Origin: Octopus vulgaris
Taxonomy: Eukaryota
Direction of reading: 5' to 3'
Length of the DNA stretch: 64,000 nt
NCBI GenBank assembly: GCA_951406725.2
Contig: OX597818.1
Location: forward strand, 51,584,001 to 51,648,000
In this document: in pieces, positions 24,510 through 62,867 of the stretch
Numbering within the stretch: position 1 is the first letter of the stretch
Layout: every line of letters starts with the position of its first letter
Notes under the pieces: model-generated
Told to the model about the DNA's origin: nothing
Databases searched by the model: none
What the model saw: only the letters and a program-made list of their open reading frames with translations
Translations under genes and position numbers: made by a program

Positions 24510-25100
24510 TGTGTTTTTTTTTTAATAAAAAAGGAAAACATGACTTATGCTAAAACGAAAAGGGGAAAAAGGCAGGTTCCAAATTTTGAACCCGGCAGCC
24601 TAAAAGGCCCAGCAACTAATTTTACCTTTCTTCGATGATTAAGCTGGGCTACTCGCACCCACCTTTTTCATCACTTCCTTCCATCGTTTCACATACTCTT
24701 TCTGTGGCAGGTTCCTCTTCTCCAACCCCATCTTGCTCTTCAGATGATATCTGAAGTAGTTTAACAAACCGGGGCCAGAGACGAAGGATCCTGTTACAAA
24801 ACCTTCCATTCTGGTTCTCCACACACACACACTTTCAGTACTGCCACCGTACAGTAAAAACAAGCCTCACCTTCCTTGGAGAGTCCAGTTGGCGGTATCA
24901 TCTTTATCATAGATCCAGCCGACAGCTGTACTCGTCCCAGCCAATGATTCGCTTAAAGCCAAAAGTAAGCCAAGTTTTCATTTATGTCATATTACAACTA
25001 CATTTTTAAGTCTCATTCGAACTCATATAACATTCTTTGTATTTGTCTGTCTTGTTATGTCCATATCTATGTAAGATCGCATGATTGTAATAAAGATTTT
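24510..25100 (-). mobile_element. Tx1/L1-like LINE 3' fragment inserted upstream of gene copy 2
   Basis: CVWRTRMEG...LLNYFRYHLK resembles the C-terminus of ORF 31945-32601. Flanked by GCTATCACTTTACTATT / GCTATCGCTTTACTATT. Confidence 0.6.
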
Positions 25101-31698: not shown

Positions 31699-32603
31699 TT
31701 TCTTTATTAGCCACAAGGGCCCAAACATAGAGGGGGGGGAGCAATACAGCGTGATTGGGGTGAGACACACAATGATTATATGGCTTTTAAAATTTTACAA
31801 AATATAATGGAATCGAATGAAATCGAATGAGATACAGCAAGGACGAAATACAAACATGAAATGAAGCAGAGAGATGGCTTACGCTCCGACCCCCACGGGC
31901 CCCTTTCTCCTACGGAAACTTTTGTGTGCAGACTTATGACATGTTCACGAGGAATCTTTCATTCCCAGCACCCTCGCAACATTCAACCATCTTTCTTTGA
32001 ACATTTTCTTTGACAGGCATCTTCTCTCCAGCCTCACCTTCCTTTTAAGGTGGAAGATAAAATATCTCACCAACCCGAGACCGGAGATGAGGTTGCCTGT
32101 CGCCAAACCTTTCATTCGCGACTTCCATACCACCTCTTTCGCTATTGCTACTACTGCGAGAAAACATTGCTTACCTTCTTTCGTGAGGAAATCCGGCGGG
32201 TCAATTTTTACGATTGACTCAGACGACAGCTGTACTCTTCCCGAACCTAACAGCAGATGTTCTGCATAAGCCCACACTTCAGACACTCCCGGACACTGAA
32301 CAATAGCGTGCAGAACGGTTTCCCTATCCCGCCCGCATCTTGGACAGTCGGCAGTGGTAGTTCGACCGTGTCGTGCGAGCTTATCCCGAACGGGTAAGGC
32401 TCCTCGGTAACATTGCCAGGCCAGGGATGTTTGGAAATTATCCAAACAGCCCGGCCCGAACGTCCGTCGGAACAGACTGTCTAACTGGTTATCTCCGAGA
32501 CCTAGGGTCTTCTCTAGAGTATCGCCGTTCCCAGCCTTTACCAACCTGCTATAGAAAAAATGTGGTGGTACCAAAACCGCTAGCATCACCCAACCATCCA
32601 TGA
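31699..32603 (-). mobile_element. 5'-truncated Tx1/L1-clade LINE with zinc-knuckle C-terminus
   Basis: ORF 31945-32601 has AWQCYRGALPV...CPRCG..RETVLHAIVQCP...KEVVWKSR. The 3' UTR ends GCCCTTGTGGCTAATAAAGAAA. Possible TSD AACCATCCA. Confidence 0.85.
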
Positions 32604-33299
32604 CTTTTTGGAAACCTACGATGAGATTGTACCAGCATCCATCAATGGCGTCATTCAGTTGGCCAATGGAGGAAGAATGTAAAATGTTAATGCGTCCATT
32701 AAGGGAGACATTAACAGACTTTCATGGTTTGTTTTGTTTTGTTTGTTCCTTCTCGAGCCATGGCTGGCTCATAGGTTCCCCACCTGAACAGGACGCCGGT
32801 CCGTCGCAGGTGAGTTGCAAGATGCAGGAGGAAAGAGTGAGAGAAAGTTGTGGCGAAAGAGTCAGCAGAAGTTCGCCATTACCTTTTGCCGGAGCCGTGT
32901 GGACTGTTTTCGTCTTTGAACGGAATTCTTTTGGGAATTTTATGACCGACTTTGTTAGGTTTTAAAGTTTTCCTTTTGTTCTCTGTTCTTGTTTGAAGCT
33001 AGTTTTCTTATGCAATATTTTTCACCTCGATTTTTAAACATTTTATAAACTCGAGTGTACCATTGAAAAACAGAGGAGACATTGCCATTCCCCGCCTCCC
33101 TTTTAGCAACTCCATTATCGCCCTATTTTTCTTCAACGCCTCCCTGGTTCTCTCTACCACCACAGGGTTGCGGTTCCGTTCACTTTGGGATCCACTGGTG
33201 TAGAATTTCAGTGAAATTCTATTGGGACATAATAAATAACAAATTTCATTTCAAAACATTTCTACTTATTACGTACATACGTCCTACAGAAATGCAGGT

Positions 33300-33372
33300 G
33301 GGGAATTAGCTCAAGTGGTAGAGCGCTTGCTTAGCATGCGAGAGGTACCGGGATCGATACCCGGATTCTCCA
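33300..33372 (+). tRNA. tRNA-Ala(AGC)
   Basis: 73-nt cloverleaf GGGGAATTAGCTCAAGTGGTAGAGC...TTAGCAT...GGATCGATACCCGGATTCTCCA with the G3:U70 Ala determinant, followed by TTTT. Confidence 0.93.
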
Positions 33373-33782
33373 TTTTGTCTAACATTGTTTTGGTTTTTGA
33401 TGAGATTGTTCATTAATGTGTTTTCAGTTCGATTTTTAAACATTATTGCCAAAAAAAATAGAGGGGTCATTGCCATCCATCGCCCTCTTTTAGGAACAGC
33501 ATTATCGCCACATTTTTCTTCAACGCCTCCCTGGCTCTCTACCATCGCAAGGGTGCGGTTCTGTCCACTTCGGGAACCAATGGTGTAGACTTTCAGTGAA
33601 ATTCCATTGGGGTATAACAAATAAACAAATTTAAGTTCAAAACATTTGTACTTATTACGCACCTACGTACCATATTTTCAATAAAATTGGAAACAATACT
33701 ATGTTGACCTATGATTCTGTCACAAATTGCTATTATGGTGTTAATTTCATTTATCATTATTTCTGCTTTTATCGTTGCGAGT

Positions 33783-33855
33783 GGTGATTTAGCTGAAGTG
33801 GTAGATCGCTTGCTTAGCATGCGAGGGGTACCAGGATCGAAACCCAGATTCTTCA
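33783..33855 (+). pseudogene. tRNA-Ala(AGC) pseudogene
   Basis: Same body with multiple stem-breaking substitutions in the acceptor, D and T arms. Confidence 0.85.
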
Positions 33856-34010
33856 TTTCTCTCTTATATTTTTTAGCTTGTTGATGGATTGTTCATTTAT
33901 GTGTTAATGTATTTTGGTGTGTTGAAATCGCGTTAGAACTTGAAATGTCTTTTCTTTTTGAGTACGTGACAAATTGATCAATACTGCTCTTTTTTTTTTA
34001 TATATTTGTA

Positions 34011-34383
34011 TCTCTCTATATATAAACGGCAGTTTGTCTGTGTGTGTTTCTGTGTGTCTGTTTGCTTGTACCCTCACCCTGACCACGGCTTTCAACCGAT
34101 TCTGATGAAACTTGACACACACATAGCCCAATGTCATAATTCAAAACTAACGCAGCGAAAATTTTGAAAAGTTCCCCCACTTCTGAAAAAAATCGATAAA
34201 TTCGACATGGGGTCGAGAATCAGAAACACAAACCACAGACTGTCTAGGGGACGCAACTCGACCTTTTTAACTAAAAAAAAAAATTTACCGTCATTTTTTT
34301 CCCATTTTTTGGCTATAACTCTCTAAAAATGCTTTATAGTTATTCCCCTTACAAACCCGAGCAACGCCGGGCGATACTGCTAG
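34011..34383 (+). mobile_element. Non-autonomous Helitron, copy 3
   Basis: A|TCTCTCTATA...CCCGAGCAACGCCGGGCGATACTGCTAG|T. Confidence 0.9.
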
Positions 34384-34519
34384 TATATGTATAATACGAA
34401 GCTTGAAATGGGTTAATCATCTGAATTTATTCATTTGCTTCAAATAATGCATAAAAGAATTTTCGGAAGTACTCTACAAGCCTGCAGATGTGTAGATCAC
34501 GTGATGACATATCACTGTC

Positions 34520-34755
34520 CTATTTCTTTACTACCCGCAAGGGGCTAAACACAGAGAGGGGACAAACAAGGAGAGATAAACGGATTAAGTCGATTATATC
34601 GACCCCAGTGCGTAACTGGTACTTAATTTATCGACCCCGAAAGGATGAAAGGCAAAGTCGACTTCGGCGGAATTTGAACTCAGAACGTAACGGCAGACGA
34701 AATACGGCTACGCATTTCGCCCGGCGTGCTAACGTTTCTGCCAGCTCACCGCTTT
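34520..34755 (-). mobile_element. SINE family B
   Basis: Consensus match. TSD-like TGATGAC(A/G)TATCACTGTC on both sides. Confidence 0.87.
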
Positions 34756-34976
34756 CAATGATGACGTATCACTGTCATCGTTGTAGACGTCGTAGGTAGA
34801 CAATATCACAGTAAAATTTCGTTACGCAAATATCCAACACATTATCTTCACTCTGCTTCGTTGTGTGACATCATTAATTTATAACCATTTCCTTACATAT
34901 ATGTAAGACAAAGTAATTATTTTCCTTTCATATGATATGTTTGGCCAAATTCGTATAATTCCCCAATATAAGGTAC

Positions 34977-35400
34977 GGGATCTTTTCGGTTTGAACGGCA
35001 GTTTTTTCTAGCAGTGTCATATGAAATTGTCACCCATAATTATGACCCTAGTATCGATCTATTGCTTTTCAATCTGTTTTAGGGTTAGGGTTAGGGGTGG
35101 GGGAAAGTGTATCTTTTTTTCTTCACAAATGTAAATAAACCCAATCTGTTTCTTAAACCAGGGACATATTCATACGGCACAGAATGTTTTTTTTTAACTC
35201 AATAGACGTCAGTGATTGGTTGAAATTGCAGAAATTGAAGAAAAAAAAACAACAAATATCTTACAAACTATAGAATTTTCTCAATAAAGCCAAGAGAAAA
35301 AGATGTTTTATAAACACATTCTACCAGTATACGAAGTTTAAAAGTGTTTAGTTGCGTGGAAATTATTTTAAAAAACTGCCGGTCAAACCGAAAAGATCCG
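34977..35400. mobile_element. MITE with ~30-bp TIRs, 6-bp TSD and internal (TTAGGG)3
   Basis: GGATCTTTTCGGTTTGAACGGCAGTTTTT / AAAAACTGCCGGTCAAACCGAAAAGATCC, with AGGTAC on both sides. Confidence 0.85.
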
Positions 35401-35452
35401 AGGTACGTTCTCTGGCTCTTTGATTAGTGATTATAGCGCCAGAGGTCAACCT

Positions 35453-35870
35453 TACTCTTTACTCTTTTACTCTTTTACTTGTTTCAGTCATTTGACTGCG
35501 GCCATGCTGGAGCACGCCTTTAGTCGATCAAATCGACCCCGGAACTTATTCTTTGTAAGCCCAGTACTTATTCTATCGGTCTCTTTTGCCGAAACGCTAA
35601 GTGGCGGGGACGTAGACACACCAGCATCGGTTGTCAAGCAATGCTGGGGGGACAAACACAGACACACAAACACACACACACACACACATATATATATACA
35701 TATATACGACAGGCTTCTTTCAGTTTCCGTCTACCAAATCCACTCACAAGGCATTGGTCGGCACGGGGCTATAGCAGAAGACACTTGCCCAAGATGCCAC
35801 GCAGTGGGACTGAACCCGCGACCATGTGGCTGGTTAGCAAGCTACTTACCACACAGCCACTCCTGCGCCA
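35453..35870 (-). mobile_element. CORE-type SINE (family A)
   Basis: Full-length reverse-complement match. Confidence 0.88.
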
Positions 35871-35994
35871 CATCCTGACACCTTGGATGTCAAAAATACT
35901 GTTTTCGATTTTGCTTTACATAATAATTGCAAATGTTTCATAATTCATATTTGACATTAAATTTGTATAGAATAAGATTGTTAGATTATATGCA

Positions 35995-36303
35995 TAGGCG
36001 CAGGAGTGGCTGCGTGGTAAGTATCTTGCTTACCAACTACATTGTTCCGGGTTCAGTCCCACTACATTGTTCCGGGTTCAGTCGACTTTGCCTTTCATTT
36101 TTTCAGGGTCGATAAATTAAGTACCAGTTGCGTTCTAGGGTCGATCTAATCGATTGCCCCACTCCCCAAAAATTTCGAGCCTTGTGCCTAGAGTAGAAAA
36201 GAATAGGTGACTGTCACCTTGGGCAAATGTCTTTTACTATTGCCTCGGGCCGACCAAAGCCTTGTGAGTGGATTTGGTAGACAGAAACTGAAAGAAGCCC
36301 ATC

Positions 36304-36360
<57 letters not shown>

Positions 36361-36582
36361 CGTTCGTGTGCCTGTGTTTGATCCCCCAACATCGCTTGAC
36401 AACCAATGCTGGTGTATTTACATCCCCGTAACTTAGCGGTTCGGGAAGAAAGAGACCGATGGAATAAGTACTAGGTTTACAAAGAATCAGTCCTGGGGTC
36501 GATTTGCTCGACTAAAGGCGGTGCTCCAGCATGGCCACAGTCAAATGACTGAATCAAGTAAAAGAGTAAAAGAGTAAGAGAG
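35995..36582 (+). mobile_element. Family A SINE interrupted by a family B fragment (~36080-36210)
   Basis: Family A head, then GTCGACTTTGCCTTTCA segment, then resumption at CACCTTGGGCAAA. Confidence 0.78.
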
Positions 36583-36889
36583 TCAAAGAAAAATCTTTTT
36601 TTTACATAAGAAAAAATTATTCTGAAGATCTTTTTGTTGAGGTTAAATACGTTTTGAAATTTCGTTTTGATTTGTCAACGTATGCGATATTCTTTTACCT
36701 GCAAAATGATTTTTATCTACAGGTAGTTTTATTCACTTAATTTTTACGATGAACAATTATTTTTCGCATTTCTATTGGCAATATTCAACTGCTAAATTAA
36801 TTATTGCTATAACAATCATGTATCTACATGTATGACGTGAATTTCATGTTACATACATAGTAATAGCTGTGTAAGGGCTAAGTAAGACT

Positions 36890-36962
36890 GGGGAATTAGC
36901 TCAAGTGGTAGAGCGCTCGCTTAGCATGTGAGAGGTACCGGGATCGATACCCGGATTCTCCA
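36890..36962 (+). tRNA. tRNA-Ala(AGC)
   Basis: Intact 73-nt cloverleaf, G3:U70, loop TTAGCAT, one G-U in the anticodon stem. Confidence 0.9.
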
Positions 36963-37517
36963 TTACGTCTATTTGTTTTGCTTCCCCTCATTTTCATGTT
37001 TTATGGTGTTGTAGTTTCTATGAATTGCTTTGCGTACTTTGATTTGTGACAAATTGCATTACAATATTTCTTAGATTAGAGAAGAGCTCCATTTAATCTT
37101 TTGGTAGTGTTAAAAATTATGGTTCATCACAATTCTATATGGTAATTCCGTGGATGGGCTCCAGACTAACTGGTTTTTACTCAAACCTATCAGTAATTCA
37201 GTAATGAACCTATAATGACTACTGGAAACAGCTGTAAGCCAAATTTGCTCCAGTAAAGGAATGATATGTAATGACCATTGTTTTTAACTTGTTTCTTATA
37301 TATACATTATTTTAAACTTATCTCTAATATATATATATATATATATATATAATAGTTATCGCCATACTAATATGGCATTCTTATAAAAATAAGAAAAAAG
37401 CTGTCCGCTTATTAGCTCCATGAGGCCATCGCCTTAAGTTAGCTATTTGATACACAAACTGTATCCATATAACCTTCGAACAAGGGAGGTCAGTCGCTCC
37501 ACACTACTTGACCGGCA

Positions 37518-37559
37518 GCTACAGACGCGTTTCGGAGTATTGCCCCTTTTCAATGCAGC
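37518..37559 (-). ncRNA. Type I hammerhead ribozyme, U3-A8 variant (also 37881-37922, 38243-38284, 38604-38645, 38966-39007)
   Basis: Reverse complement GCTGCA-TTGAAAA-GGGG(CAATA)CTCC-GAAAC-GC-GTC-TGTAGC. Confidence 0.82.
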
Positions 37560-39135
37560 GTAGCCAGCCAGTAGGTGTCGCTTCCGACAATCTCTGTTCG
37601 ATGGTTTTATTTACCTAGTTTCGGTGGAATACATCCACTTGTTTTCAATAATAGAAATATTAAAATAACTAAGTCTCTCTAAAAGAGAACAGCGGCAGCG
37701 TTCCCGGAAAATAATAGTTATCGCCATACTAATATGGCATTCTTATAAAAATAAGAAAAAAGCTGTCCGCTTATTAGCTCCATGTAGGCTATCGCCTTAA
37801 GTTAGCTATTTGATACACAAACTGTATCCATATAACCTTCGAACAAGGGAGGTCAGTCGCTCCACACTACTTGACCGGCAGCTACAGACGCGTTTCGGAG
37901 TATTGCCCCTTTTCAATGCAGCGTAGCCAGCCAGTAGGTGTCGCTTCCGACAATCTCTGTTCGATGGTTTTATTTACCTAGTTTCGGTGGAATACATCCA
38001 CTTGTTTTCAATAATAGAAATATTAAAATAACTAAGTCTCTCTAAAAGAGAACAGCGGCAGCGTTCCCGGAAAATAATAGTTATCGCCATACTAATATGG
38101 CATTCTTATAAAAATAAGAAAAAAGCTGTCCGCTTATTAGCTCCATGAGGCCATCGCCTTAAGTTAGCTATTTGATACACAAACTGTATCCATATAACCT
38201 TCGAACAAGGGAGGTCAGTCGCTCCACACTACTTGACCGGCAGCTACAGACGCGTTTCGGAGTATTGCCCCTTTTCAATGCAGCGTAGCCAGCCAGTAGG
38301 TGTCGCTTCCGACAATCTCTGTTCGATGGTTTTATTTACCTAGTTTCGGTGGAATACATCCACTTGTTTTCAATAATAGAAATATTAAAATAACTAAGTC
38401 TCTCTAAAAGAGAACAGCGGCAGCGTTCCCGGAAAATAATAGTTATCGCCATACTAATATGGCATTCTTATAAAAATAAGAAAAAGCTGTCCGCTTATTA
38501 GCTCCATGAGGCCATCGCCTTAAGTTAGCTATTTGATACACAAACTGTATCCATATAACCTTCGAACAAGGGAGGTCAGTCGCTCCACACTACTTGACCG
38601 GCAGCTACAGACGCGTTTCGGAGTATTGCCCCTTTTCAATGCAGCGTAGCCAGCCAGTAGGTGTCGCTTCCGACAATCTCTGTTCGATGGTTTTATTTAC
38701 CTAGTTTCGGTGGAATACATCCACTTGTTTTCAATAATAGAAATATTAAAATAACTAAGTCTCTCTAAAAGAGAACAGCGGCAGCGTTCCCGGAAAATAA
38801 TAGTTATCGCCATACTAATATGGCATTCTTATAAAAATAAGAAAAAAGCTGTCCGCTTATTAGCTCCATGAGGCCATCGCCTTAAGTTAGCTATTTGATA
38901 CACAAACTGTATCCATATAACCTTCGAACAAGGGAGGTCAGTCGCTCCACACTACTTGACCGGCAGCTACAGACGCGTTTCGGAGTATTGCCCCTTTTCA
39001 ATGCAGCGTAGCCAGCCAGTAGGTGTCGCTTCCGACAATCTCTGTTCGATGGTTTTATTTACCTAGTTTCGGTAAACTAGGTAAATAAAACCATCGAACA
39101 GAGATTGTCGGAAGCGACACCTACTGGCTGGCTAC

Positions 39136-39177
39136 GCTGCATTGAAAAGGGGCAATACTCCGAAACGCGTCTGTAGC
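39136..39177 (+). ncRNA. Type I hammerhead ribozyme, U3-A8 variant (also 39498-39539, 39860-39901); predicted cleavage after C39171
   Basis: Stem I GCTGCA/TGTAGC, extended by TGGCTGGC/GCCGGTCA and CTAC/GTAG. Core TTGAAAA. Stem II GGGG/CTCC. GAAA. Palindromic stem III ACGCGT. GUC triplet. Confidence 0.85.
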
Positions 39178-40127
39178 TGCCGGTCAAGTAGTGTGGAGCG
39201 ACTGACCTCCCTTGTTCGAAGGTTATATGGATACAGTTTGTGTATCAAATAGCTAACTTAAGGCGATGGCCTCATGGAGCTAATAAGCGGACAGCTTTTT
39301 TCTTATTTTTATAAGAATGCCATATTAGTATGGCGATAACTATTATTTTCCGGGAACGCTGCCGCTGTTCTCTTTTAGAGAGACTTAGTTATTTTAATAT
39401 TTCTATTATTGAAAACAAGTGGATGTATTCCACCGAAACTAGGTAAATAAAACCATCGAACAGAGATTGTCGGAAGCGACACCTACTGGCTGGCTACGCT
39501 GCATTGAAAAGGGGCAATACTCCGAAACGCGTCTGTAGCTGCCGGTCAAGTAGTGTGGAGCGACTGACCTCCCTTGTTCGAAGGTTATATGGATACAGTT
39601 TGTGTATCAAATAGCTAACTTAAGGCGATGGCCTCATGGAGCTAATAAGCGGACAGCTTTTTTCTTATTTTTATAAGAATGCCATATTAGTATGGCGATA
39701 ACTATTATTTTCCGGGAACGCTGCCGCTGTTCTCTTTTAGAGAGACTTAGTTATTTTAATATTTCTATTATTGAAAACAAGTGGATGTATTCCACCGAAA
39801 CTAGGTAAATAAAACCATCGAACAGAGATTGTCGGAAGCGACACCTACTGGCTGGCTACGCTGCATTGAAAAGGGGCAATACTCCGAAACGCGTCTGTAG
39901 CTGCCGGTCAAGTAGTGTGGAGCGACTGACCTCCCTTGTTCGAAGGTTATATGGATACAGTTTGTGTATCAAATAGCTAACTTAAGGCGATGGCCTCATG
40001 GAGCTAATAAGCGGACAGCTTTTTTCTTATTTTTATAAGAATGCCATATTAGTATGGCGATAACTATTATTTTCCGGGAACGCTGCCGCTGTTCTCTTTT
40101 AGAGAGACTTAGTTATTTTAATATTTC

Positions 40128-40157
<30 letters not shown>

Positions 40158-40158
<1 letters not shown>

Positions 40159-40565
40159 CTCTTTATACTCTTTTACTTGTTTCAGTCATTTGACTGCGGC
40201 CATGCTGGAGCACCGCCTTTAGTCGAGCAAATCGACCCCGGGACTTATTCTTTGTAAGCCCAGTACTTATTCTATCGGTCTCTTTTGCCGAACCGCTAAG
40301 TGACGGGACATAAACACACCAGCATCGGTTGTCAAGCAATGCTAGGGGGACAAACACAGACACACAAACACATACACACACATACATACATATATATATA
40401 TGCATATATACGACAGGCTTCTTTCAGTTTCCGTCTACCAAATCCACTCACAAGGCATTGGTCGGCCCGGGGCTATAGCAGAAGAAACCTGCCCAAGATG
40501 CCACGCAGTGGGACCGAACCCGGAACCATGTGGTTGGTTAGCAAGCTACTTACCACACAGCCACT

Positions 40566-40568
<3 letters not shown>
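40158..40568 (-). mobile_element. CORE-type SINE (family A)
   Basis: Full-length reverse-complement match. Confidence 0.88.
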
Positions 40569-40661
<93 letters not shown>

Positions 40662-40753
40662 AGGAAAATGCCACTTATATTTGAACACTATACAAATATT
40701 CTTTTAAAAAAACTTTACTTTTAATTTTTCTAAATTTAATTATTTAATTGTTA

Positions 40754-40790
40754 CAGTTGAAAAGGTCTCAAATGACTGAAACCGGTACTG
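40754..40790 (+). ncRNA. Minimal type I hammerhead motif (U3-A8 variant) in a ~185-bp insert between two (TA)n tracts
   Basis: CAG-TTGAAAA-GGTC(TCAAAT)GACT-GAAAC-CG-GTA-CTG, with palindromic stem III ACCGGT and a GUA triplet. Confidence 0.68.
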
Positions 40791-40838
40791 AAATGTTCTT
40801 TACAAAATTATTTTAGCATTTTCTATCCTGACTTGTTT

Positions 40839-40904
<66 letters not shown>

Positions 40905-41006
40905 AGAGAAATGGTAAGACAACAAAAGAATGAAAGAGACCTCAATATTATATAAATAGAGGAATTTATCTGTAAATGTAATATGTGACAATTATTCCGT
41001 AGCCAT

Positions 41007-41067
41007 GATAAAACTCCGAGTTTCGGATGTCGGGGTGGAAATCCACGCCGCCATCTCCTCAGTTATC
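41007..41067 (-). ncRNA. Type I hammerhead motif in a (TA)n-adjacent short element
   Basis: Reverse complement GATAA-CTGAGGA-GATG...CATC-C-GAAA-CTC(G)GAG-TT-TTATC. Confidence 0.62.
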
Positions 41068-42309
41068 CGGCCAACGGAAAAATGCTATGAAAATATAAAT
41101 AATATTCAACAACTACTGTAGTTGAATAATATTCTTAGGGCCGCAATTTACTCTCACGCAGCACCTTTCTGATCTTGTCGCTAATTCAGTTCTTAACAAA
41201 ATTGAAAACTGTTAACATTTTTGAAGAGGACTGGTTGTTAGCTACATTTTGGCATTAAAAAATTGAGATTTGATCCAGTAGAAAAAAAGTTTACATGAAA
41301 AATTTGTAGCAACGTTATAGGAGAGTAAGTAACGGCATTAATCAAATTTAGATGTTAATAACTTTTTTGTTTTTTAAAAGCAAAATATATTCACCTTAGC
41401 TTCAATGATAGCAGAAAACATGAAGAATTTCTTAGTTTTGTTCCCATACAACAAAAGTTTATATAAAAAATGTTGTGTGGTAAAATATGAAAAAGAAATA
41501 TAAGGCAAAAAATTAGATTTAAGTATAATTAACTTTTTTATTTTAAAAACAATCTATATTTTAATTAACTTTAAATGATAGAGCTCAATTCGAGGAATTT
41601 CATGGTATCAATCTCATGCAATGAAGTTTTAAAAGAAAATAAAGTTATGAATGTTTGTTTCTCAAATTTGAGGGTGATGATATAGTTCTATACATTTTTA
41701 TAAGGGGTCTTTTAATATATGTCACCGGCGTCATTGAGGTAAGAAAAAAATTATCAACGACACCGCTAATTGACTCATTTGACACATTATTAATTAGCAT
41801 AATAGCATAGCCTGGAAAAAAGCATGGATTACATGGAACAATGCGAGCAAGAGAAATAATATTCTTAAAGTTATAAATCTGGAAAATTAGAGGACAAGTT
41901 ATTACTGAGATTCGAACCCAAGAGCCATCGAACGAGAGTCCGCTACTCTATCCACTAGGCCATGTGCCTCCACGGTATATTTTATGTAACGATATATTAT
42001 TGCGATATTTTCTGCCTGTGACATCTACAAAGCACTTATGTATCGTCACGTGATCTACACACACGTAAATTTATAGAGTAATTCTTGTATACAGGTGCAC
42101 AACTAAAACAAAAAGGGATAGGGGTGGGGTGGGGGGCATCAGGTGCACTGTTGGCGAATTTCGCAGTACGCTTGATGCGCCCCCGCCAGCTCTGTATCTC
42201 CTTTTGCTTTTAGTTGCAGTTTACCTGAGCAAATGATTAAACAAATGATTAAATACTGGAGAATGAACAATACATAAAAAAATAAATAAAATAGAAAAAA
42301 ACATTGGAA

Positions 42310-42382
42310 TGGAGAATCCGGGCATCGATCCCGGTACCTCTCGCATGCTAAGCGAGCGCTCTACCACCTGAGCTAATTCCCC
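42310..42382 (-). tRNA. tRNA-Ala(AGC)
   Basis: Perfect cloverleaf, G3:U70, downstream T6 terminator. Confidence 0.94.
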
Positions 42383-42702
42383 ACTGGTAGTAGTCCAAAT
42401 GCATATAACATAAAATGAAATAAACTTCATATTAGTGGCGGGTTATTCAGAGAATAACAAATTTAGCAATATGATTCTGTTTATAGAGATGACAAAAATT
42501 GATTATTTATTTGAATAAACAAAACTATCCAGCGATAACAGTTACTGTCAGAAATATGCAATAATAGAAAAAGGACAGGGAAAACCATACGGAAATCTGT
42601 CGTAATATTGCTTAAGAATATTAAAAAATATAGACTTTATAACTAGATAATACAGTTTTGTATTTGAGTAGCATATGGGAACCGGTATTGAGGAAGAATA
42701 AA

Positions 42703-42932
42703 GGCGGCGAGCTGGCAGAAGCGTTAGCACGCCGGGCGAAATGCTTTGCGGTATTTCGTCTGCCGTTACGTTGTGAGTTCAAATTCCGCCGAGGTCGACT
42801 TTGCCTTTCATCCTTTCGGGGTCGATAAATTAAGTACCAGTTACGCACTGGGGTCGATGTAATCGACATAATACCTATGTCTGTCCTTGTTTGTCCCCTC
42901 TATGTTTAGCCCCTCGTGGGTAATAAAGAAAT
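42703..42932 (+). mobile_element. SINE family B
   Basis: Full length, flanked by a 17-bp TSD GGTATTGAGGAAGAATA. Confidence 0.9.
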
Positions 42933-43601
42933 AGGTATTGAGGAAGAATAGGAAAGTATATCAGCCGAAACGTTGTGTTAACAACAAACAAGATGAGGAC
43001 AAATATCCGTCAAATGTAAATAATGTTTATAACTAGACTTATAATTCATTTCGTTGACTAAGGGTTTTTGAAATATCATTCAAATGATAATTCGGTATTA
43101 TTTTTAGTTGTGCAACTCTACACACTGGCTCTGGAATGAAATTTACTCTGGAGGGGCAAACCCAGGTTTAAAACTTTTTTTAAATACAATAATAAATCGA
43201 TTATATCAACCCCAGTATTCAACTGGTACATAACAAGATATAATATTAATTACTTTGTCTTATGTGTATATAGGAAATTGTGAGATATAAATTAGGAACA
43301 AATAATTAGAGATATATTCCTGCCTGTGACTTCCACAGTGACAATACTGACGTACCATCACGTGATCTACAAATCTGCATGTTTGTTGAGTAATTCTGAA
43401 TATTTTGAATATGATCAATAAAACAAATTATTAAATCCTGGAGATTAACCTATTTAAAGAAACCAAGTAAAAGCTGTACGTTGTATATCAGTTTCACGCA
43501 TATATACATATGAAAAAGATTTAAAGTTTCAATGCAATTTAAACACGCTAAAATAGTGGTAAAGCATTAATGAACAAAGCATCAAAAACAAACAAAAAAG
43601 A

Positions 43602-43660
43602 TGGAGAATCATGGTATCGATCCCGTATCTTTCACATGCTAACGAGCAGTCTATCACATC
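43602..43660 (-). pseudogene. tRNA-Ala pseudogene (5'-decayed)
   Basis: TGGAGAATCATGGTATCGATCCCGTATCTTTCACATGCTAACGAGC on plus. Flank duplicated with 45888. Confidence 0.75.
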
Positions 43661-43805
43661 ACTGCTTTTGTTAATTAATTTTGTTCTTTGTTCTTTGTAA
43701 CAAAATGAGGAAGATATTTTGCTATTTATTTATGTAACGAAATTTTATTGTGATATTTTCTGCTTGTAATTTCTACAGTGAAAGCGCTGATGTATCACAA
43801 GAACA

Positions 43806-44428
43806 GTATTGAACCGTGATAGGAAATTCAACAAAAAATATACTTCATCTAGTGAGAGATAAATATTATATCGGAATGCTCACAGCAGCCATATTCCTAC
43901 CACTCTATGTCACGCTGGTGAGACCCATATTGGAGTACGGGATTCAAGCCTCTTCTCCTTATCTCCTCAAAGACATACAGCATCTCGAAAGAGTCCAGAA
44001 GCTGGCTACCCGCATGGTTCATGGTCTCAAAAATTTGTCCTATGAAGAAAGGCTGAGGACGCTCGACCTTTATTCTCTTGAAAAACGCCGCCGCCGTGGT
44101 GATCTCATTCTCGCCCACAACATCATAAGCGGAAAGTGTAACCTCTCGAAAGAGCTGTTCTTCACTCCTGCTCCAGAGCGTCGGCTGCGGGGTCATTCCG
44201 AAAAGCTCTACCTGCGACGATTTCATCTCAATCGAAGGAGAGGAGCTTTCTCCGTCCGGATTGCGGATCCGTGGAACAAGCTGCCAGACGAGATGGTAAA
44301 GATGCCGACGACCGCTTTGTTCAAAGCCTCCCTGGACCTCAAGTGGCCTGAACTCTTTACATGAACACCACCCTGTACTTAACTCCATGTCCCCCTACAT
44401 GGCCTTGCTATTTGCTTTTGAGCCAAAT

Positions 44429-44491
<63 letters not shown>

Positions 44492-44582
44492 GTAACTAAC
44501 TAACTAACTATTATTCAAAAGTCACAAATTCTCTCACCAGATGGAGTACTTTTTTTGATGAATTTTCTATCACGGTTCAGTA
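43806..44582. mobile_element. Short MITE with ~55-bp imperfect TIRs, interrupted by a CR1 insertion
   Basis: TGAACCGTGATAGGAAATTCAACAAAAAA...TCATCTAGTGAGAGA (43810-43859) is inverted at 44530-44580. Confidence 0.6.
43870..44510 (+). mobile_element. 5'-truncated CR1-like LINE with (ACTA)n tail
   Basis: Open frame LYVTLVRPILEYG...LERVQKLATRMV...YEERL...RRRRGDLI...WNKLP, short 3' UTR, tandem ACTA tail. Confidence 0.93.
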
Positions 44583-44757
44583 CATTATATACCTCCTAAC
44601 GTAGGCTTTTCACTGCAAATTCATACTATGATATGATTGGCGTGATTGTTTGTTGAATGACTCTAAAGATTCAACTAAGAATATTATGGATTTATACCAC
44701 GTGGATAACTCTACCAAAAATATACCAGCACCATCGAATAAACTATACCTCAGGATA

Positions 44758-45157
44758 TTCTTTTCTACTCTGGACACAAGGCCCGATATTTGGTGGGGAG
44801 GGACCAGTCGATTAGATCGATCCCAGTACGCAATTGGTACTTAATTTATGGACCGCGAAAGGATAAAGGGCAAAGTCGACCTCGGCGGAATTTGAACTCA
44901 GAACGTAAAGACAGACGAAATACCTATTTCTTTATTACCCACAAGGGGCTAAACACAGAGGGGACAAACAAGGACAGACATAGGTATTAAGTCGATTACA
45001 TCGACCCCAGTGCGTAACTGGTACTTAATTTATCGACCCCGAAAGGATGAAAGGCAAAGTCGACCTCGGCGGAATTTGAACTCAGAACGTAAAGACAGAC
45101 GAAATACCGATAAGCATTCCGCCCGGCGTGCTAACGTTTCTGCCAGCTCGCCGCCTT
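44758..45157 (-). mobile_element. Dimeric SINE family B inserted in a PLE remnant
   Basis: Two bodies. TSD-like TATA(C/T)CTCAGGATATT. Confidence 0.85.
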
Positions 45158-45720
45158 TATATCTCAGGATATTACTTGAGAAAGTTGAAGACCTCGTTAA
45201 ACGGATGAGATGGAAAACTTTATTTTTTGATTCCAGACTATCTCCCTCATATAGAGAAAGGTATGATTTAAAGACACGGAAATATCCTCCTATTGTTAAC
45301 GATTTAGCCCCCTCTGAGTCTGAGCTCCTTAATTTAGTTACTAATATTATATTTCGAAAAAACTCATATCCCCTTTCAGTCTAAAAGGAAATCTGAGACT
45401 AAATACTTTAGAAATTCTAAAAAGGAGTTTGTTTTTTCAGACAGGACTTATTAACCTATGTGAAGTTACTAATGATTTATACGTTAAGTTGCTAAAAGAC
45501 ATCATTTTCTCTAAATATTATATAAGAAAACTAGCGTAGAGAGATACAATGATGTCAAATTCCTCGCTAAACGTAGCAATTTCGATGATAGATTAAAATG
45601 CTTAGCTAAGAGGGGGGGGGGTGTTTATTACTTTAAAAGACCATAAGCCCAATTTTCATAATAATCCTTCCTGTAGATTGTTAAACACACCGATATCTCA
45701 GATTAGGCAAGTAGCTAAAA
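45158..45720 (+). mobile_element. Degenerate Penelope-like RT N-terminal fragment
   Basis: EKVEDLVKRMRWKTLFF and [21 protein letters not shown] resemble the PLE RT start. Stops and frameshifts present. Confidence 0.7.
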
Positions 45721-45887
45721 TAAAACCATGTCCGTGTTTGTGTATTTTCTATGTATGTGTGTTCCATATCAGTTTCACGCATATATATATATGAAAGAGA
45801 TTTAAAGTTTCAATGCAATTTAAACACAATAAAATAGTGGTAAAGCATTACTGAACAAAGCATCAAAAAAAAAAAAAAAAGAAAAAA

Positions 45888-45954
45888 TGGAGAATCAGGG
45901 TATCGACCCCGTATCTTTCACATACTAACGAGCAGTCTACCACATCACTAATTT
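45888..45954 (-). pseudogene. tRNA-Ala pseudogene
   Basis: Degenerate copy sharing ~120 bp of flank with 43602. Confidence 0.72.
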
Positions 45955-46136
45955 GGCTTTTTCCTCAGTTTTTGCCTAAGTGGATGTGACATAAAATGAA
46001 ATCAACGTCATATGAGTGACTCGTGATTCAGACAATAAATTTAGCAACAAAAGTCTGTTACAAAATGATCGAAACACTAAAATAGTATATTAAGGAAAGA
46101 AAAAAAATAAGGAAGATTCGCATGAAAATTCTTATG

Positions 46137-46209
46137 TGGAGAATCCGGGTATCGATCCCGGTACCTCTCGCATGCAAAGCGAGCGCTCTACCGCCTGAGC
46201 TAATTCCCC
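46137..46209 (-). tRNA. tRNA-Ala(TGC) on the same body as the AGC genes
   Basis: GGGGAATTAGCTCAGGCGGTAGAGCGCTCGC-TTTGCAT-GCGAGAGGTACCGGGATCGATACCCGGATTCTCCA. All stems intact. Confidence 0.92.
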
Positions 46210-46789
46210 AGTGTCAATCATTCGGTAAAAGCATACTTTATATAATGTTAAATATTAAAAAATCAAGCACACTGTATAAACAAGTTAAAAAGAGATATGA
46301 AAACTCAATTAACTCCAGCAAAAAATCTTGTATTCAATATATAGGCATTCTTTCGATATAACTCGACAAAATCAAAACATTTCACTTCGGATGTTTCCGT
46401 GGAAGTAAATGACAGTTCGATTCTATTTTCTGCTTGGAAATTTGCGGATTTTACATACACACATGAAACAGGTAAGAACAAATATGCAAGGCTTTTTTTC
46501 TTCAAATTTGAAATGAGACATTGCTGGCATAATTTCGTTATATCTATACTCCACAACCCACGGAAATACCCGAAGTGAATTGCTTTGATTTTGTCGAGTC
46601 ATATCGAAAGAATGCCAATATATAGCTAGATTAGTGATTATAGCCTCATAGCTCACTTCCGAAAGTCATTTAGCATAAAATTGTTTTCGATTTGGGTCGT
46701 TTGAGCCTCTTTCGTATTGCAAGCTCTTGATGGTCTTCTTCGCGCCAGGCACGAAGCTGGAATTAAACCGAAAGAGTGCGATAACAGAA

Positions 46790-47180
46790 GTGGTCGAAAA
46801 GGGGTTCCTTTGAAGGTTCTCGGGAGTAACGTTACTTGATAGAGTGCGTAGCTCGGAAATCAGGGAGTCTCCCCAGGTCGAGCATCGACGTCAGAGCATT
46901 GAGAGGTCACAGCTCCGGTACTACGAACATATGGTAAGAATGTTGCAGGAAGGAATGGAAAGACGGATTCTTCAAGTCGAGTAAACCGGCTGGAGACATG
47001 GAGTAGACCAAGAACGAGATGGTTGGCCAATATCCATAGTCTCAGGTGGACATCGTTTGGAATCCAACAGGAAAATGCAGAGACGGTTACTTCTGATGGG
47101 ACCTTATGGAGGAAGTGCCTGAGGATTGTACCCCCATGACCCACCCAAGAATATTGATCGAAAAAGATGGATGGATGGAA
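46790..47180 (+). mobile_element. RTE-like LINE 3' end with (GGAT)n tail
   Basis: Decayed IERSQLRYYEHMVRM...RPRTRWL. A related minus-strand fragment lies at ~52230-52465. Confidence 0.65.
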
Positions 47181-47429
47181 TGTTTTCGATTTTTGTTGTG
47201 TAACTGCTACATGATAATATTAATCTTTCACAATTTATTTTTTGATGTTACGTTTGTATATTTTTTATGCAACGGTAGGTTTTCTATGAATGTTTACACA
47301 ATCAAAGAAAACTACTTTTCACATAAGACAACTTATTTTCTTTTGAAGATTCTGATGTATTTTTATTGGGGCTAAATGAGTTTTCGATATTTTGTTTTAA
47401 CTTGTTTATAAATCAAAAATTTTCAAACA

Positions 47430-47502
47430 GGGGAATTAGCTCAGATGCTAGAGCGCTCGCTTAGCATGCGAGAGGTACCGGGATCGATACACGGATTCTC
47501 CA
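47430..47502 (+). tRNA. tRNA-Ala(AGC) variant, possibly pseudogene
   Basis: Full length, but the D-loop GG is changed to GC and there is a T-stem mismatch (CACGG). Confidence 0.7.
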
Positions 47503-47539
47503 ATAACAGGTTATTTAAACTGTATCGTTTTTTCTTTTT

Positions 47540-47920
47540 AGACGCAGAAGTGACTATGTGGTAAGTACCTTGCTTATCAACCACATGGCTCCGGGTTCAT
47601 TCCCACCACGTGGCACCTTGGACAAGTATTTTCTACAATTGCTTCTGGCCGACCAAAGCCTTGTGAGTGGATTTGGTAGACGGAAACTGAAAGAAGCCCA
47701 TCGTATATGTATTTATATGTATATATGTTTGTGTGTCTGTGTTCCCCCTAGCATTGCTTGACAACCGATGCTGGTGTGTTTACGTCCCCGTAACTTAGCG
47801 GTTCGGCAAAAATACCCGATAGAATAAGTACTAGTCTTACAAAGAATAAGTCCTGGGGTCGATTTGCTCGACTAAAGGCGGGGCTCCAGCATGGCAGCAG
47901 TCAAATGAGTGAAACAAGAG
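47540..47920 (+). mobile_element. CORE-type SINE (family A)
   Basis: Consensus match. Confidence 0.85.
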
Positions 47921-48007
47921 TGCATGGATTTTTTTTATTATTAGCATCATATTTCTTACGATAACTGCTAATATAATGGACATTGTTTGCATTTCTACAG
48001 ACGGTAT

Positions 48008-49816
48008 TCTTTGATATCTTTCGGCACCCTCTTTGATATATTTCGGCACCCCCTTTGATCTCTTTCGGGATTCCTCTTTGATCTCTGTCGGCACCCTCTT
48101 TGATCTCTTTCGGCACCCTCCTTGATCTCTTTCGGTACCCTCTTTGATCTCTTTCGGCACCCTCTTTGATCTCTTTCGGCACACCCTTTGATCTCTTTCG
48201 GGATTCTTCTTTGATCTCTTTCGGGATTCCTCTTTGATCTCTTTCGGGATTCCTCTTTGATCTCTTTCGGGATTCCTCTTTGATCTCTTTCGGGATTCCT
48301 CTTTGATCTCTTTCGGGATTCCTCTTTGATCTCTTTCGGGATTCCTCTTTGATCTCTGTCGGCACCCTCTTTGATCTCTTTCGGCACCCCATTGATCTCT
48401 TTCGGCACCCTTTGATTACTTTCGGCACCCTCTTTGATCTCTTTCGGCACCCTCTTTGATCTCTTTCGGCACCCCCTTTGATCTCTTTCGGCACCCTCTT
48501 TGATCTCTTTCGGCACCCCCCTTTGATCTCTTTCGGGATTCCTCTTTGATCTCTTTCGGCACCCCATTGATCTCTTTCGGCACCCCTTTGATCTCTTTCG
48601 GCACCCTCTTTGATCTCTTTCGGCACCCTCTTTGATCTCTTTCGGCACCCACTTTGATCTCTTTCGGCACCCTCTTTAATGTCTTTCGGCACCCTCTTTG
48701 ATCTCTTTCGGGATTCCTCTTTGATCTCTTTCGGCACGCTCTTCGACCTCTTTCGGCACCCCTTTGATCTCTTTCGGGATTCCTCTTTAATCTCTTTCGG
48801 CACCCTCTTTGATCTCTTTCGGCACCCTCTTTGATATTTTTTGGGACCCTCTTTGATCTCTTTCGGCACCCTCTTTGATCTCTTTCGGAACCCTCTTTGA
48901 TCTCTTTCGGCAACCTCTTTGATCTCTTTCGGCACCCTCTTTGATCTCTTTCGGCATCCCTTTGATCTCTTTCGGGATTCCTCTTTGATCTCTGTCAGCA
49001 CCCTCTTTGATCTCTTTCGGCACCCTCTTTGATCTTTTTCGGCACCCTCTTTGATGTCTTTCGGCACCCTCTTTGATCTCTTTCGGCACCCTTTGATCTC
49101 TTTCGGGATTCCTCTTTGATCTCTGTCGGCACCCTCTTTGATCTCTTTCGGGATTCCTCTTTGATCTCTGTCGGCACCTTCTTTGATCTCTTTCGGCACC
49201 CTCTTTGATCTCTTTCGGCACCCTCTTTGATCTCTTTCGGCACCCTCTTTGATATTTTTCGGGACCCTCTCTGATTTCTTTCGGCACCCTCTTTGATCTC
49301 TTTCGGCACCCTCTTTTATCTCTTTCGGGATTCCTCTTTGATCTCTGTCGGCACCCTCTTTGATCTCTGTCGGCACCCTCTTTAATATCTTTCGGCACCC
49401 TCTTTGATCTCTTTCGGCACCCCTTTGAACTCTTTCGGGATCCCTCTTTGATCTCTGTCGGTACACTCTTTGATCTCTGTCGGCATCCTCTTTGATCTAT
49501 TTCGGCACCCTCTTTGATCTCTTTCGGCACCCTCTTTGATCTCTTTCGGGACTCCTCTTTGATCTCTTTCGGCACCCTTATTGATCTCTTTCGGCACCCT
49601 CTTTGATCTCTTTCGGGACTCCTCTTTGATCTCTTTCGGCACCCTCTTTGATCTCTTTCGGGACTCCTCTTTGATCTCTTTCGGGACTCCTCTTTTATCT
49701 CTTTCGGCACCCTCTTTGATCTCTTTCGGCACCCTCTTTGATCTGTTTCGGGACTCTGATCTCTTTCGGCACCCTCTTTGATCTGTTTCGGGACTCTGAT
49801 CTCTTTCGGCACCCTC
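48008..49816. repeat. 21-23-bp minisatellite (CGGCACCCTCTTTGATCTCTTT / CGGGATTCCTCTTTGATCTCTTT)
   Basis: About 1.8 kb of interspersed unit variants. Confidence 0.96.
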
Positions 49817-50357
49817 TTGTCAAAATTGTTTCAAAATTTTTGGCACAATGCCAGAAGAGGTAAGTCGATTTCATCGATATCAGTTCTAAACTGATACTTA
49901 TTTTTATCGACTCGGAAAAGATGAATGGTAAAGTTGACTTCGGTGACATTTAATATTTATTTCTTTATTGCCCTAAGGGGGACAAACAAGGACAGACGAA
50001 GAGATTAAGTCGATTCGGCCGATCCCAGTACGACCCCCGAAAGTATCAAAGGGAAAGTCGACCTCGGCGGAATTTGAACTCAGAACGTAAAAGCAGACGA
50101 AATACCTATTTCTTTACTACCCACAAGGGGCTAAACACATAGAGGACAAACAAGGACAGACAAAGGGATTAAGTCGATTATATCGACCCCAGTGCGTAAC
50201 TGGTACTTATTTAATCGACCCCGAAAGGATGAAAGGCAAAGTCGATCTCACTTATATAAGTGCAGTTTGAATATGCAAATACACATATTCAAATACATAT
50301 AAGAATTTAAATACATGAATAATACAATAAAAAGTTTAAAAAAAGCAAAAATAAAAA

Positions 50358-50430
50358 TGGAGAATCCGGGTATCGATCCCGGTACCTCTCGCATGCTAAG
50401 CAAGCGCTCTACCACTTGAGCTAATTCCCC
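50358..50430 (-). tRNA. tRNA-Ala(AGC)
   Basis: Identical to 33300-33372 in reverse, with a T5 terminator directly downstream. Confidence 0.93.
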
Positions 50431-50779
50431 CCTCGCAATGAATTGCCGCCAAAACTAAATCCATATAATATATTAAGTTGAATCAATGGCATATTAGTAT
50501 CTGGTTAGGTACGTAGTAAGTACAAATGTTTTCAACTAAAATTTGTTTGGAATTTCACTGAAAGTCTACACCATTGGTTCCCGAAGTGGACAGAACCGCA
50601 CACTTGTGGTGGAAGAGAGAGCCAGGGAGGCATTGAAGAAAAATGGGGCGATAATGGATGGCAATACCCCCTCTACTTATCAGTGGTACACTCGACTTTT
50701 GACAGTAATGTTTAAAAATCGAACTAAAAACACATAATTGGAACAATCTCATCAAAAACAAAAACAATGTTAGACAAAT

Positions 50780-50852
50780 TGGAGAATCCGGGCATTGATC
50801 CCGGTACCTCTCGCATGCTAAGCAAGCGCTCTACCACTTGAGCTAATTCCCC
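50780..50852 (-). tRNA. tRNA-Ala(AGC)
   Basis: Intact cloverleaf with T-loop ATCAATG. Confidence 0.9.
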
Positions 50853-51664
50853 ACTCACGCTAAATTGCCGCCAAAACTAAATCCATATAATATATTTAGT
50901 TGAATCAATGGCATATTAGTAACTGGTTATTCAGACAATACTAAAGTTGGCGACTAAATATTCTTCATGGAGATGAGAAATTTGATTGTACATCTAAATT
51001 TTCTCAGCTAAAGAAATCTATCCAAACAGAAGCTGCAGTAGGAAACATTAAAAAAATGGTAAAAAATATGTATATATACATATATACGACGGGCTTCTTT
51101 CAGTTTCCGTTTACCAAATCCACTCACAAGGCTTTGGTCGGCCCGAGGCTATAGTAGAAGACACCCAATGTGCCATGCAGTGGGACTTTACCCGGAACCA
51201 TGTGGTCGGTAAGTAAGCTACTTACCACACAGCCACTCCTCCGCCTATACATACATTATAATATATTTTATTGATTTTTCATGATTGAAATTAAAGTGGA
51301 GGGTGGGGTGAGTGGGGGAATAATGATAATTGCATATAAAATGACAGAAACGTTCTGTGATTCGAATGTTCTGCATCGGCAAAAAATCCTTTAATAAAGC
51401 TCACAAAACGAAGACTATAGAATCTCTCGTTAAACGCAACTGCAAACTTTAAATCGCCCGCAGAAATATCGATTAAATATTGTGTAATCATTCGTTATTT
51501 CTTTATGACTGTTTATAATGTAATCATTCCTAGATTTCCAAAAACTATTCTGAAATTTGCGTTTCAATGAATTTAATGCTTGAATATATAGTTGCACTCA
51601 AAAAGCGTTTCAAAACTTTTATGAATATATATTTCTCATCAGTATAGCCTAGTATAGCTTTTTA

Positions 51665-61266: not shown

Positions 61267-61530
61267 ACATATATGCATACATAGGTACAGGACGTCACCA
61301 ACTGTAAACAACATGAAGTGCGAAAACATGCTGGGGTTTTGACTTGAAGAATTTTTACTCGAATGCATCGATCTCAGGACATATTATTTAAAAAAATCTT
61401 GTCCTTATTCTATCGGTATTTTTTGCTGAACTGATAAGTTACGGGGACGTAAACACACTAGCACCATTTGTCCGTTGGTGGGTTGTAGGACAAACACACA
61501 TACACACACACCCACACACACACACGCACG

Positions 61531-61567
<37 letters not shown>

Positions 61568-61569
<2 letters not shown>

Positions 61570-61714
61570 CTGGCTTCTTTCAATTTCCGTATACCAAATC
61601 CACTCACACAGCTTTGGTCGGCCCATGGCTATAGTAAAAGACATTTGCCCAAGATTTCGCGCTGTAGGACAGAACCTAGAACCATATAGTTTGAAAGCAA
61701 GCTTCTTACCACGA

Positions 61715-61754
<40 letters not shown>

Positions 61755-61902
61755 CGACTGGCTTCTTTCAATTTCAGTCTACCAAATCCACTCACACAGC
61801 TTTGGTCGGCCCATGGCTATAGTAGAAGACATTTGCCCAAGATTTCGCGCTGTAGGACAGAACCCAGAACCATATAGTTTGAAAGCAAGCTTCTTACCAC
61901 GT

Positions 61903-61946
<44 letters not shown>

Positions 61947-62093
61947 GACTGGCTTCTTTCAATTTCCGTCTACCAAATCCACTCACACAGCTTTGGTCGG
62001 CCCATGGCTATAGTAAAAGACATTTGCCCAAGATTTCGCGTAGTAGGACTGAACCTAGAACCATATAGTTTGAAAGCAAGCTTCTTACCACGT

Positions 62094-62155
<62 letters not shown>

Positions 62156-62302
62156 GACTGGCTTCTTTCAATTTCCGTCTACCAAATCCACTCACACAGC
62201 TTTGGTCGGCCCATGGCTATAGTAAAAGACATTTGCCCAAGATTTCGCGCTGTAGGATAGAACCTAGAACCATATAGTTTGAAAGCAAGCTTCTTACCAC
62301 GT

Positions 62303-62336
<34 letters not shown>

Positions 62337-62483
62337 GACTGGCTTCTTTCAATTTCCGTCTACCAAATCCACTCACACAGCTTTGGTCGGCCCATGGCTA
62401 TAGTAAAAGACATTTGCCCAAGATTTCGCGCAGAAGGACTGAACCCAGAACCATATAGTTTGAAAGCAAGCTTCTTACCACGT

Positions 62484-62529
<46 letters not shown>

Positions 62530-62676
62530 GACTGGCTTCTTTCAATTTCCGTCTACCAAATCCACTCACACAGCTTTGGTCGGCCCATGGCTATAGTAAA
62601 AGACATTTGCCCAAGATTTCGCGCAGTAGGACTGAACCTAGAACCATATAGTTTGAAAGCAAGCTTCTTACCACGT

Positions 62677-62720
<44 letters not shown>

Positions 62721-62867
62721 GACTGGCTTCTTTCAATTTCCGTCTACCAAATCCACTCACACAGCTTTGGTCGGCCCATGGCTATAGTAAAAGACATTTG
62801 CCCAAGATTTCGCGCAGTAGGACAGAACCTAGAACCATATAGTTTGAAAGCAAGCTTCTTACCACGT

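Follow-up and report, generated by a model that had tools for sequence, protein, structure and literature searches.

A young, two-armed hammerhead repeat family in Octopus vulgaris, probably a non-LTR retrozyme inserted by Penelope-like machinery

We analyzed a 64,000-nucleotide stretch of the Octopus vulgaris genome (contig OX597818.1), hereafter the window, which contains a tandemly repeated element at 37349-40133. Tandem Repeats Finder divides the element into two blocks, 37349-39073 (4.8 copies) and 39074-40133 (2.9 copies), each with a period of 362 bp. Since the first block is the reverse complement of the second, the element consists of two back-to-back arms that are joined at their 5' ends within (TA)n. 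With unit position 1 set at 39074, the left arm (37349-39073, minus strand, 4.77 units) runs from unit position 359 to 273 and terminates without a tail at an end point referred to here as site A. The right arm (39074-40133, plus strand, 2.93 units) runs from unit position 1 to 336 and terminates at a second end point, site B, with a tail of 63 nt. The end motifs occupy 37349-37360 for site A (minus strand) and 40121-40133 for site B (plus strand), and the head-to-head junction (39073/39074, within 39070-39077) is blunt and lacks microhomology in this copy. A (TA)n target tract adjoins the left arm (37327-37348) and another adjoins the right arm (40134-40158); beyond the latter lies an abundant host repeat that is unrelated to the element.

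No differences separate the right arm from the periodic unit (100% identity), and the left arm shows three: a substitution, an insertion, and a deletion. The only ATG open reading frame of at least 30 amino acids is a 38-codon frame, one per unit. The initial annotation had described about 7.7 almost identical, non-coding units of 362 bp, in agreement with these results, and its bounds (37351-40131) were nearly right, the true ends being 37349 and 40133. It had also read the locus as one head-to-tail array, which tandem repeat finding and strand comparison reject, as 37349-39073 runs on the minus strand and 39074-40133 on the plus strand. The initial annotation had further overlooked that the two arms are inverted, that their outer ends fall at a fixed pair of points, that the hammerhead core is a variant, and that the unit contains a promoter-like motif. 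The internal promoter-like sites face outward, whereas host read-through across the locus would yield a transcript that folds into a hairpin of roughly 1 kb.

Several other repeats and genes share the window. Seven tRNA-Ala genes (six AGC and one TGC) lie within 33299-50853, one of them on the plus strand approximately 390 bp left of the element. A 22-bp minisatellite with 82 copies and a strong strand skew occupies 48008-49818. About 13 tandem copies of a roughly 193-bp unit, composed of (CA)n and the 3' portion of the abundant host repeat, fill 61527-64000; the same host repeat flanks the hammerhead element at 40156-40560.

Each unit carries one hammerhead motif, as the initial annotation claimed. 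We counted eight cores, three on the plus strand (39136-39177, 39498-39539, and 39860-39901, with predicted cuts after 39171, 39533, and 39895) and five on the minus strand (38966-39007, 38604-38645, 38243-38284, 37881-37922, and 37518-37559, with C17 at 38972, 38610, 38249, 37887, and 37524, respectively). The first two plus-strand cut positions had been given correctly, and the third is additional. A generic type I hammerhead scan of the 64-kb window returned no motifs beyond these eight. Folding recovered the type I fold with a GUC site, the palindromic stem III, and the long extension of stem I proposed earlier (about 39118-39195 for the first plus-strand motif); stem I is predicted to have 6 bp and stem II 4 bp. 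The fold is considerably more stable than expected for the 131-nt extended motif (z = -3.46), compared with just -1.13 for the 53-nt core by itself. Because the core reads U3-UGA-N-A8-A9, its 3-8 pair is U-A in place of the canonical C3-G8. The type I core is otherwise complete, with a 3-8 base pair, GAAA, an NUH cleavage site (here GUC), and type I topology. The same covariation is known from Schistosoma Penelope hammerheads (PMC4209133). The Rfam hammerhead models did not match the element at the gathering score or even at E 10, and the U3-A8 core implies that Rfam-based scans overlook whole families.

Comparison of genomic copies favors conservation of the hammerhead fold. Among 11 of 65 variants, picked to span the subfamilies and representing only two or three related lineages, 97.3% of stem cells are paired. 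Four pairs are altered on both sides between subfamilies, one of them preserving the stem III palindrome, so the covariation whose absence would have spoken against the motif is present, albeit in few independent lineages. Position 7, which is free in hammerheads, carries each of the four bases within the first 100 of the 1,549 exact matches to the core. The units of both subfamilies fold strongly as circles (z of -6.1 and -5.4). A whole-genome search with the Rfam Hammerhead_1 model returned six unrelated motifs, none with a Penelope ORF nearby. Three fetched loci (L245, L246, and L249, near 1500-1610) hold hammerheads of another family, in which stem II is very long, and L244, L247, and L248 contain more hammerhead motifs.

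A profile built from 15 U1 upstream regions, pseudogenes included, predicts an snRNA-type promoter within the unit. Among 724 ranked positions, unit position 37 is the best candidate start with columns -70 to -41 and the second best with columns -70 to -1. It ranks first or second with a combined U1 and U2 profile and just 57th or 81st with a profile of eight U2 regions alone. The best U1-profile site of the older subfamily is likewise 37. Predicted proximal promoter elements lie at 39412-39429 and 39774-39791 (plus strand) and at 38714-38731, 38353-38370, 37991-38008, and 37628-37645 (minus strand), and unit positions 37-53, which include the predicted start, correspond to 39472-39488 (plus strand). 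Simple patterns for Pol III A and B boxes found neither. As the promoter-like motif falls just past site B, a unit would be driven from the preceding unit, and under this model the right arm of the window's copy would release no more than one monomer and the left arm no more than three.

The element belongs to a large dispersed family. A genome-wide search recovered 1,549 exact core motifs, compared with 0 in the control, and 209 matches at approximately 99% identity, drawn from 40 of 987 candidates, are spread over many contigs. The family is thus not confined to this locus, and the near identity of its dispersed copies supports the recent activity proposed previously. It is multicopy, dispersed, and recently mobile, and it is built of tandem non-coding units in the 150- to 450-bp range with one type I hammerhead each, all as expected of a retrozyme. 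A second subfamily has a 360-bp unit that is about 80% identical, with 2,724 candidates.

Throughout the family, the outer ends of the arms fall at two places, site A (unit positions 268-279, typically 273) and site B (325-337, typically 336). One A and one B end were found in 31 of 37 young loci (the others being five one-armed loci and one with an unclassed end), in 7 of 11 loci that bear a LINE (described below), and in 11 of 29 loci of the older, 80%-identical subfamily, the remainder of the latter two groups being one-armed or having one end unclassed. The older loci were selected for a B end, so the test in that set is the other arm. Wherever both outer ends could be classed in this first set, they formed an A+B pair (49/49). 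A further set gave A+B in 22 of 30 loci, counted by eye and including one repeat of locus L170, with the rest one-armed or unclear. No A+A or B+B locus occurred in either set. TA-rich DNA adjoins 67 of 68 arm ends, and the window's copy is flanked by (TA)n on both sides.

The arms meet at variable points. Microhomology of at least 3 nt occurs at 9 of 16 scorable arm-arm junctions, compared with 5.4% by chance; seven further junctions had insertions, and eight were not scorable. The two 5' ends of a locus are usually far apart on the unit, the longer arm can carry either end type (A in 20 cases and B in 11), and the longest arms reach 9.9 and 11.45 units. We considered whether the template runs off at the predicted start or cut site, but only 0 and 3 of 68 arm 5' ends lie there (1.3 expected each), with no pile-up. 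The 5' ends do cluster at unit positions 129-147 (15/68, compared with 3.6 expected) across many loci, for which local structure may be the explanation.

One A and one B end with a one-sided tail is the Penelope "tail" signature. Penelope-like insertions are described as carrying an inverted 5'-truncated copy and a 30- to 40-bp tail at one end (10.1101/2021.04.23.441226; PMC3846280), and the octopus loci have an inverted 5'-truncated copy, a tail on one end only, and AT-rich or (TA)n targets. A purified anole Penelope-like protein, predicted to act as a dimer, cleaves AT-rich DNA and extends the two strands, starting at a pair of neighboring internal sites between which the tail lies (PMC11167929). 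The hammerhead family is young and protein-free, and its one-A-one-B rule is unbroken; it therefore provides direct genomic evidence for Penelope mobilization. This genome-wide paired-end footprint supports the earlier suggestion that Penelope-like machinery, a probable enzyme in this case, inserted the element, and the genome-wide evidence likewise supports its identity as a retrozyme.

The hammerhead element itself lacks the RT and GIY-YIG ORF of an autonomous Penelope-like element, whereas autonomous elements with intact 781-aa RT and GIY-YIG ORFs are present in the same genome. Among 15 loci of this 781-aa family, two copies are two-armed, and in both of these one end is short and the other long, within (TA)n. 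The family is abundant and intact at L130-L143, where it has (TA)n targets, an ORF upstream that reaches 479 codons, and no detectable hammerhead. We rejected it as the partner of the hammerhead unit, as its tail is 40 nt rather than 63 nt, it has no hammerhead, and the two share no sequence. No autonomous partner sharing the unit sequence or the 63-nt tail was found among 150 of 6,136 GIY-YIG candidates that were scored, with 46 loci fetched, and a pattern search for B-site copies that continue differently returned ordinary copies only. Two other candidates also failed: the ORFs beside the unit in L057 and L061 belong to an APE-RT LINE, and an 80% match beside a GIY-YIG gene (L088), considered as the terminal repeat of that gene, is the second retrozyme subfamily, facing it. 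Separate Penelope fragments lie 0.1-2.4 kb from a unit at five loci.

A LINE occupies the predicted start site of the unit at other loci. This 5.35-kb element encodes a CCHC ORF1 and an APE-RT ORF2, both intact in L160 (L160:1982-7339), and is provisionally of the L1/Tx1 type, a placement that follows its domain layout. Among 30 loci fetched, all 16 copies with at least 93% identity follow unit position 53, 13 of them after a unit and 3 after the duplication of another copy. Insertion duplicates 17 bp corresponding to unit positions 37-53. Three 5'-truncated copies (L151, L165, and L256) are in register and the host units differ in subfamily, which indicates targeting rather than mere descent. 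The LINE-bearing loci are L151-L154, L157-L167, L255, and L256; the site is empty in all eight units of the window's copy. Older relatives of the LINE lie at the first 17 bases of U1 snRNA (L226:1756-1919, L155, and L156) or at scattered sites. Tx1-clade elements are known to target snRNA genes and other transposons (PMC4494074), and our literature searches did not find a LINE homing to the predicted start of a retrozyme as a target class.

Further LINE-related sequences were observed. Four to five LINE copies cluster on C2 near 73.05 Mb, the older relative in L156 lies between two U2 genes, and old fragments related to the LINE 3' region occur in the window at 24590-24940 and 32001-32464 (86% and 66%). 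In L287, the sequence upstream of a U2 start resembles the LINE 3' end, which hints at a possible U2-targeting sister family.

Taken together, we consider it likely (probability roughly 0.6) that the locus is a young insertion of a non-coding hammerhead repeat family into (TA)n, with two arms bearing the Penelope tail signature, copied by a Penelope-like RT-endonuclease from a predicted circular 362-nt RNA. Judged by sequence, it is a putative non-LTR retrozyme mobilized by Penelope-like machinery, in agreement with every test applied except the Rfam match. In the proposed cycle, transcription would start at position 37 of a unit, driven by an snRNA-type promoter located where the preceding unit ends, and would read through into further units. 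Adjacent hammerheads, probably paired via the palindromic stem III, would cut at position 98 and release 362-nt monomers, which would then be ligated into circles. A Penelope-like protein, whose footprint is observed, would cut (TA)n, and each DNA end would prime at a different fixed site, one at A (approximately 273) and the other at B (approximately 336), so that a Penelope-type protein would insert the repeat by using the two ends of a single break as primers. Rolling-circle copying would yield multi-unit arms, and the two arms would be joined at variable points, often through short microhomology, as the junctions show.

Sequence variants within the arms bear on the template. In 24 of 25 cases, a recurrent allele occurs throughout the units of its arm. 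Of the rare alleles, six are present in all copies of their locus, ten in some but not all, and 75 are singletons. Both arms share the recurrent allele in 8 of 12 cases, two of the four misses being L058, which is not a true arm pair, and the recurrent alleles of L063 differ between its two arms. This homogeneity, the lack of indels across the cut site in all 142 copies counted, the long arms, and the absence of a stop at the start or cut site fit repeated copying of one unit, although a homogeneous linear multimer could also give this pattern. In L255, a 3' piece of the LINE lies within an arm and directly abuts the opposite arm, which makes a monomer circle an improbable template in at least one case.

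We consider it unlikely that the same element and enzyme operate from an uncleaved linear multimer, with a slow or incidental hammerhead and no need for a circle. Such a route would accord with the finding that hammerhead cleavage is dispensable in vitro for anole Penelope insertion, where uncleaved RNA is the main substrate (PMC11167929), with the weak stem III and U3-A8 core, and with L255, which was copied past a hammerhead site into LINE sequence; a homogeneous source locus would likewise give homogeneous arms. However, if the promoter of a unit lies in the preceding one, each linear cycle would lose at least one promoter and arrays would be expected to contract; instead, there are arms that span 9.9 and 11.5 units, and the family has undergone renewal across its subfamilies. 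Compensatory change also maintains the pairing of the hammerhead.

Copying from a circle with two primers is also preferable to a quite improbable scheme in which there is a single primer, the second arm is copied from the first cDNA after it folds back, and endonuclease trimming of one end leaves the tail. Endonuclease resolution and self-priming have been proposed for Penelope inverted repeats (10.1101/2021.04.23.441226; PMC3846280), and the alleles common to both arms and the junction microhomology suit a fold-back as well. Fold-back is nevertheless at odds with the occurrence of either end type on the longer arm, the different recurrent alleles of the L063 arms, the distance between the 5' ends of a locus, and the extension of both strands from two sites by the purified protein (PMC11167929). 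It is more improbable still that the arms are terminal-repeat remnants of an autonomous Penelope-like element rather than an independent RNA element. Their geometry is identical to that of Penelope insertions, and in the young subfamily both site A and site B fall within the 38-codon ATG frame, but the older subfamily stops this frame early, the units form perfect multi-unit tandems with their own promoter-like motif, and a search of 79 sources and 30 more (with 20 of 120 proteins as queries) showed no unit fused to Penelope coding sequence. Plain satellite DNA expanded by unequal crossover, a model discussed for vertebrate retrozyme arrays (10.64898/2026.07.22.740005), would account for units in tandem but has a negligible probability given the dispersal at 99% identity over many contigs, the inverted arms, the (TA)n targets, and the paired-end rule that contradicts it; local expansion may still add units after insertion.

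Building on the circular, Penelope-pasted element, we tentatively propose a three-layer system, which we regard as somewhat doubtful as a whole. In it, a hammerhead RNA circle that has an snRNA-type promoter of its own would be inserted by a Penelope dimer, which would prime from the two ends of a single break, necessarily at two different sites of the same circle. A LINE lineage would have switched from U1 genes to the transcription start of this RNA, and its 17-bp duplication would keep the downstream ribozyme intact, so that the flanking hammerheads could process the LINE RNA. Two-site priming on one circle, if true, would account for the tail and the inverted repeat of Penelope elements at large. 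The family bears on which enzyme moves animal retrozymes and on how Penelope elements acquire their inverted arm and one-sided tail, and it offers a 362-nt substrate for studying two-ended priming and rolling-circle copying.

Metazoan non-LTR retrozymes, described from coral, from mussel with units of 350-390 bp, and from axolotl with units of 330 and 350 bp (PMC7229834), are among the closest known systems. They share with the octopus family non-coding tandem units some hundreds of bp long with one type I hammerhead each, a short palindromic stem III, a GC content below 50%, a strongly self-paired predicted circle, and thousands of motifs per genome. The octopus element differs in its U3-A8 core and in its two-armed insertions, whose end points are strictly paired, and the word "inverted" is absent from the main text of that source; circles have been demonstrated for these retrozymes, while that of the octopus unit, including its self-cleavage into 362-nt monomers and circularization, is predicted. 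Vertebrate retrozymes resemble the family in their proposed use of Penelope machinery as non-autonomous derivatives, but that case rests on distribution and phylogeny and invokes local amplification, and "tail," "mollusc," and "octopus" are absent from its main text (10.64898/2026.07.22.740005). Endonuclease-bearing Penelope-like elements share the tandem and inverted 5'-truncated copies, the one-ended tail, the AT-rich or (TA)n targets, and a hammerhead near the repeat end (PMC11167929; 10.1101/2021.04.23.441226; PMC3846280). In contrast to these elements, with tails of 30-40 nt, the octopus unit has no RT or endonuclease ORF, its tail is approximately 63 nt, and the whole element is one repeated unit. 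The Cercyon Penelope hammerheads of Schistosoma have the same core covariation but are minimal and mostly single (PMC4209133), whereas the octopus motif has canonical helices of 6 and 4 bp and occurs in tandem. Newt satellite 2 is similarly a hammerhead tandem repeat with an internal snRNA-type promoter, demonstrated in the newt (PMC2220036) and predicted in the octopus. Literature searches of openly available main texts returned no printed octopus retrozyme, no account of this family, and none of these features in retrozymes. The retrozyme class is already known (PMC7229834) and its dependence on Penelope was previously proposed (10.64898/2026.07.22.740005); to these the octopus family adds a footprint of strictly paired ends, a variant core, and a predicted promoter exploited by a LINE.
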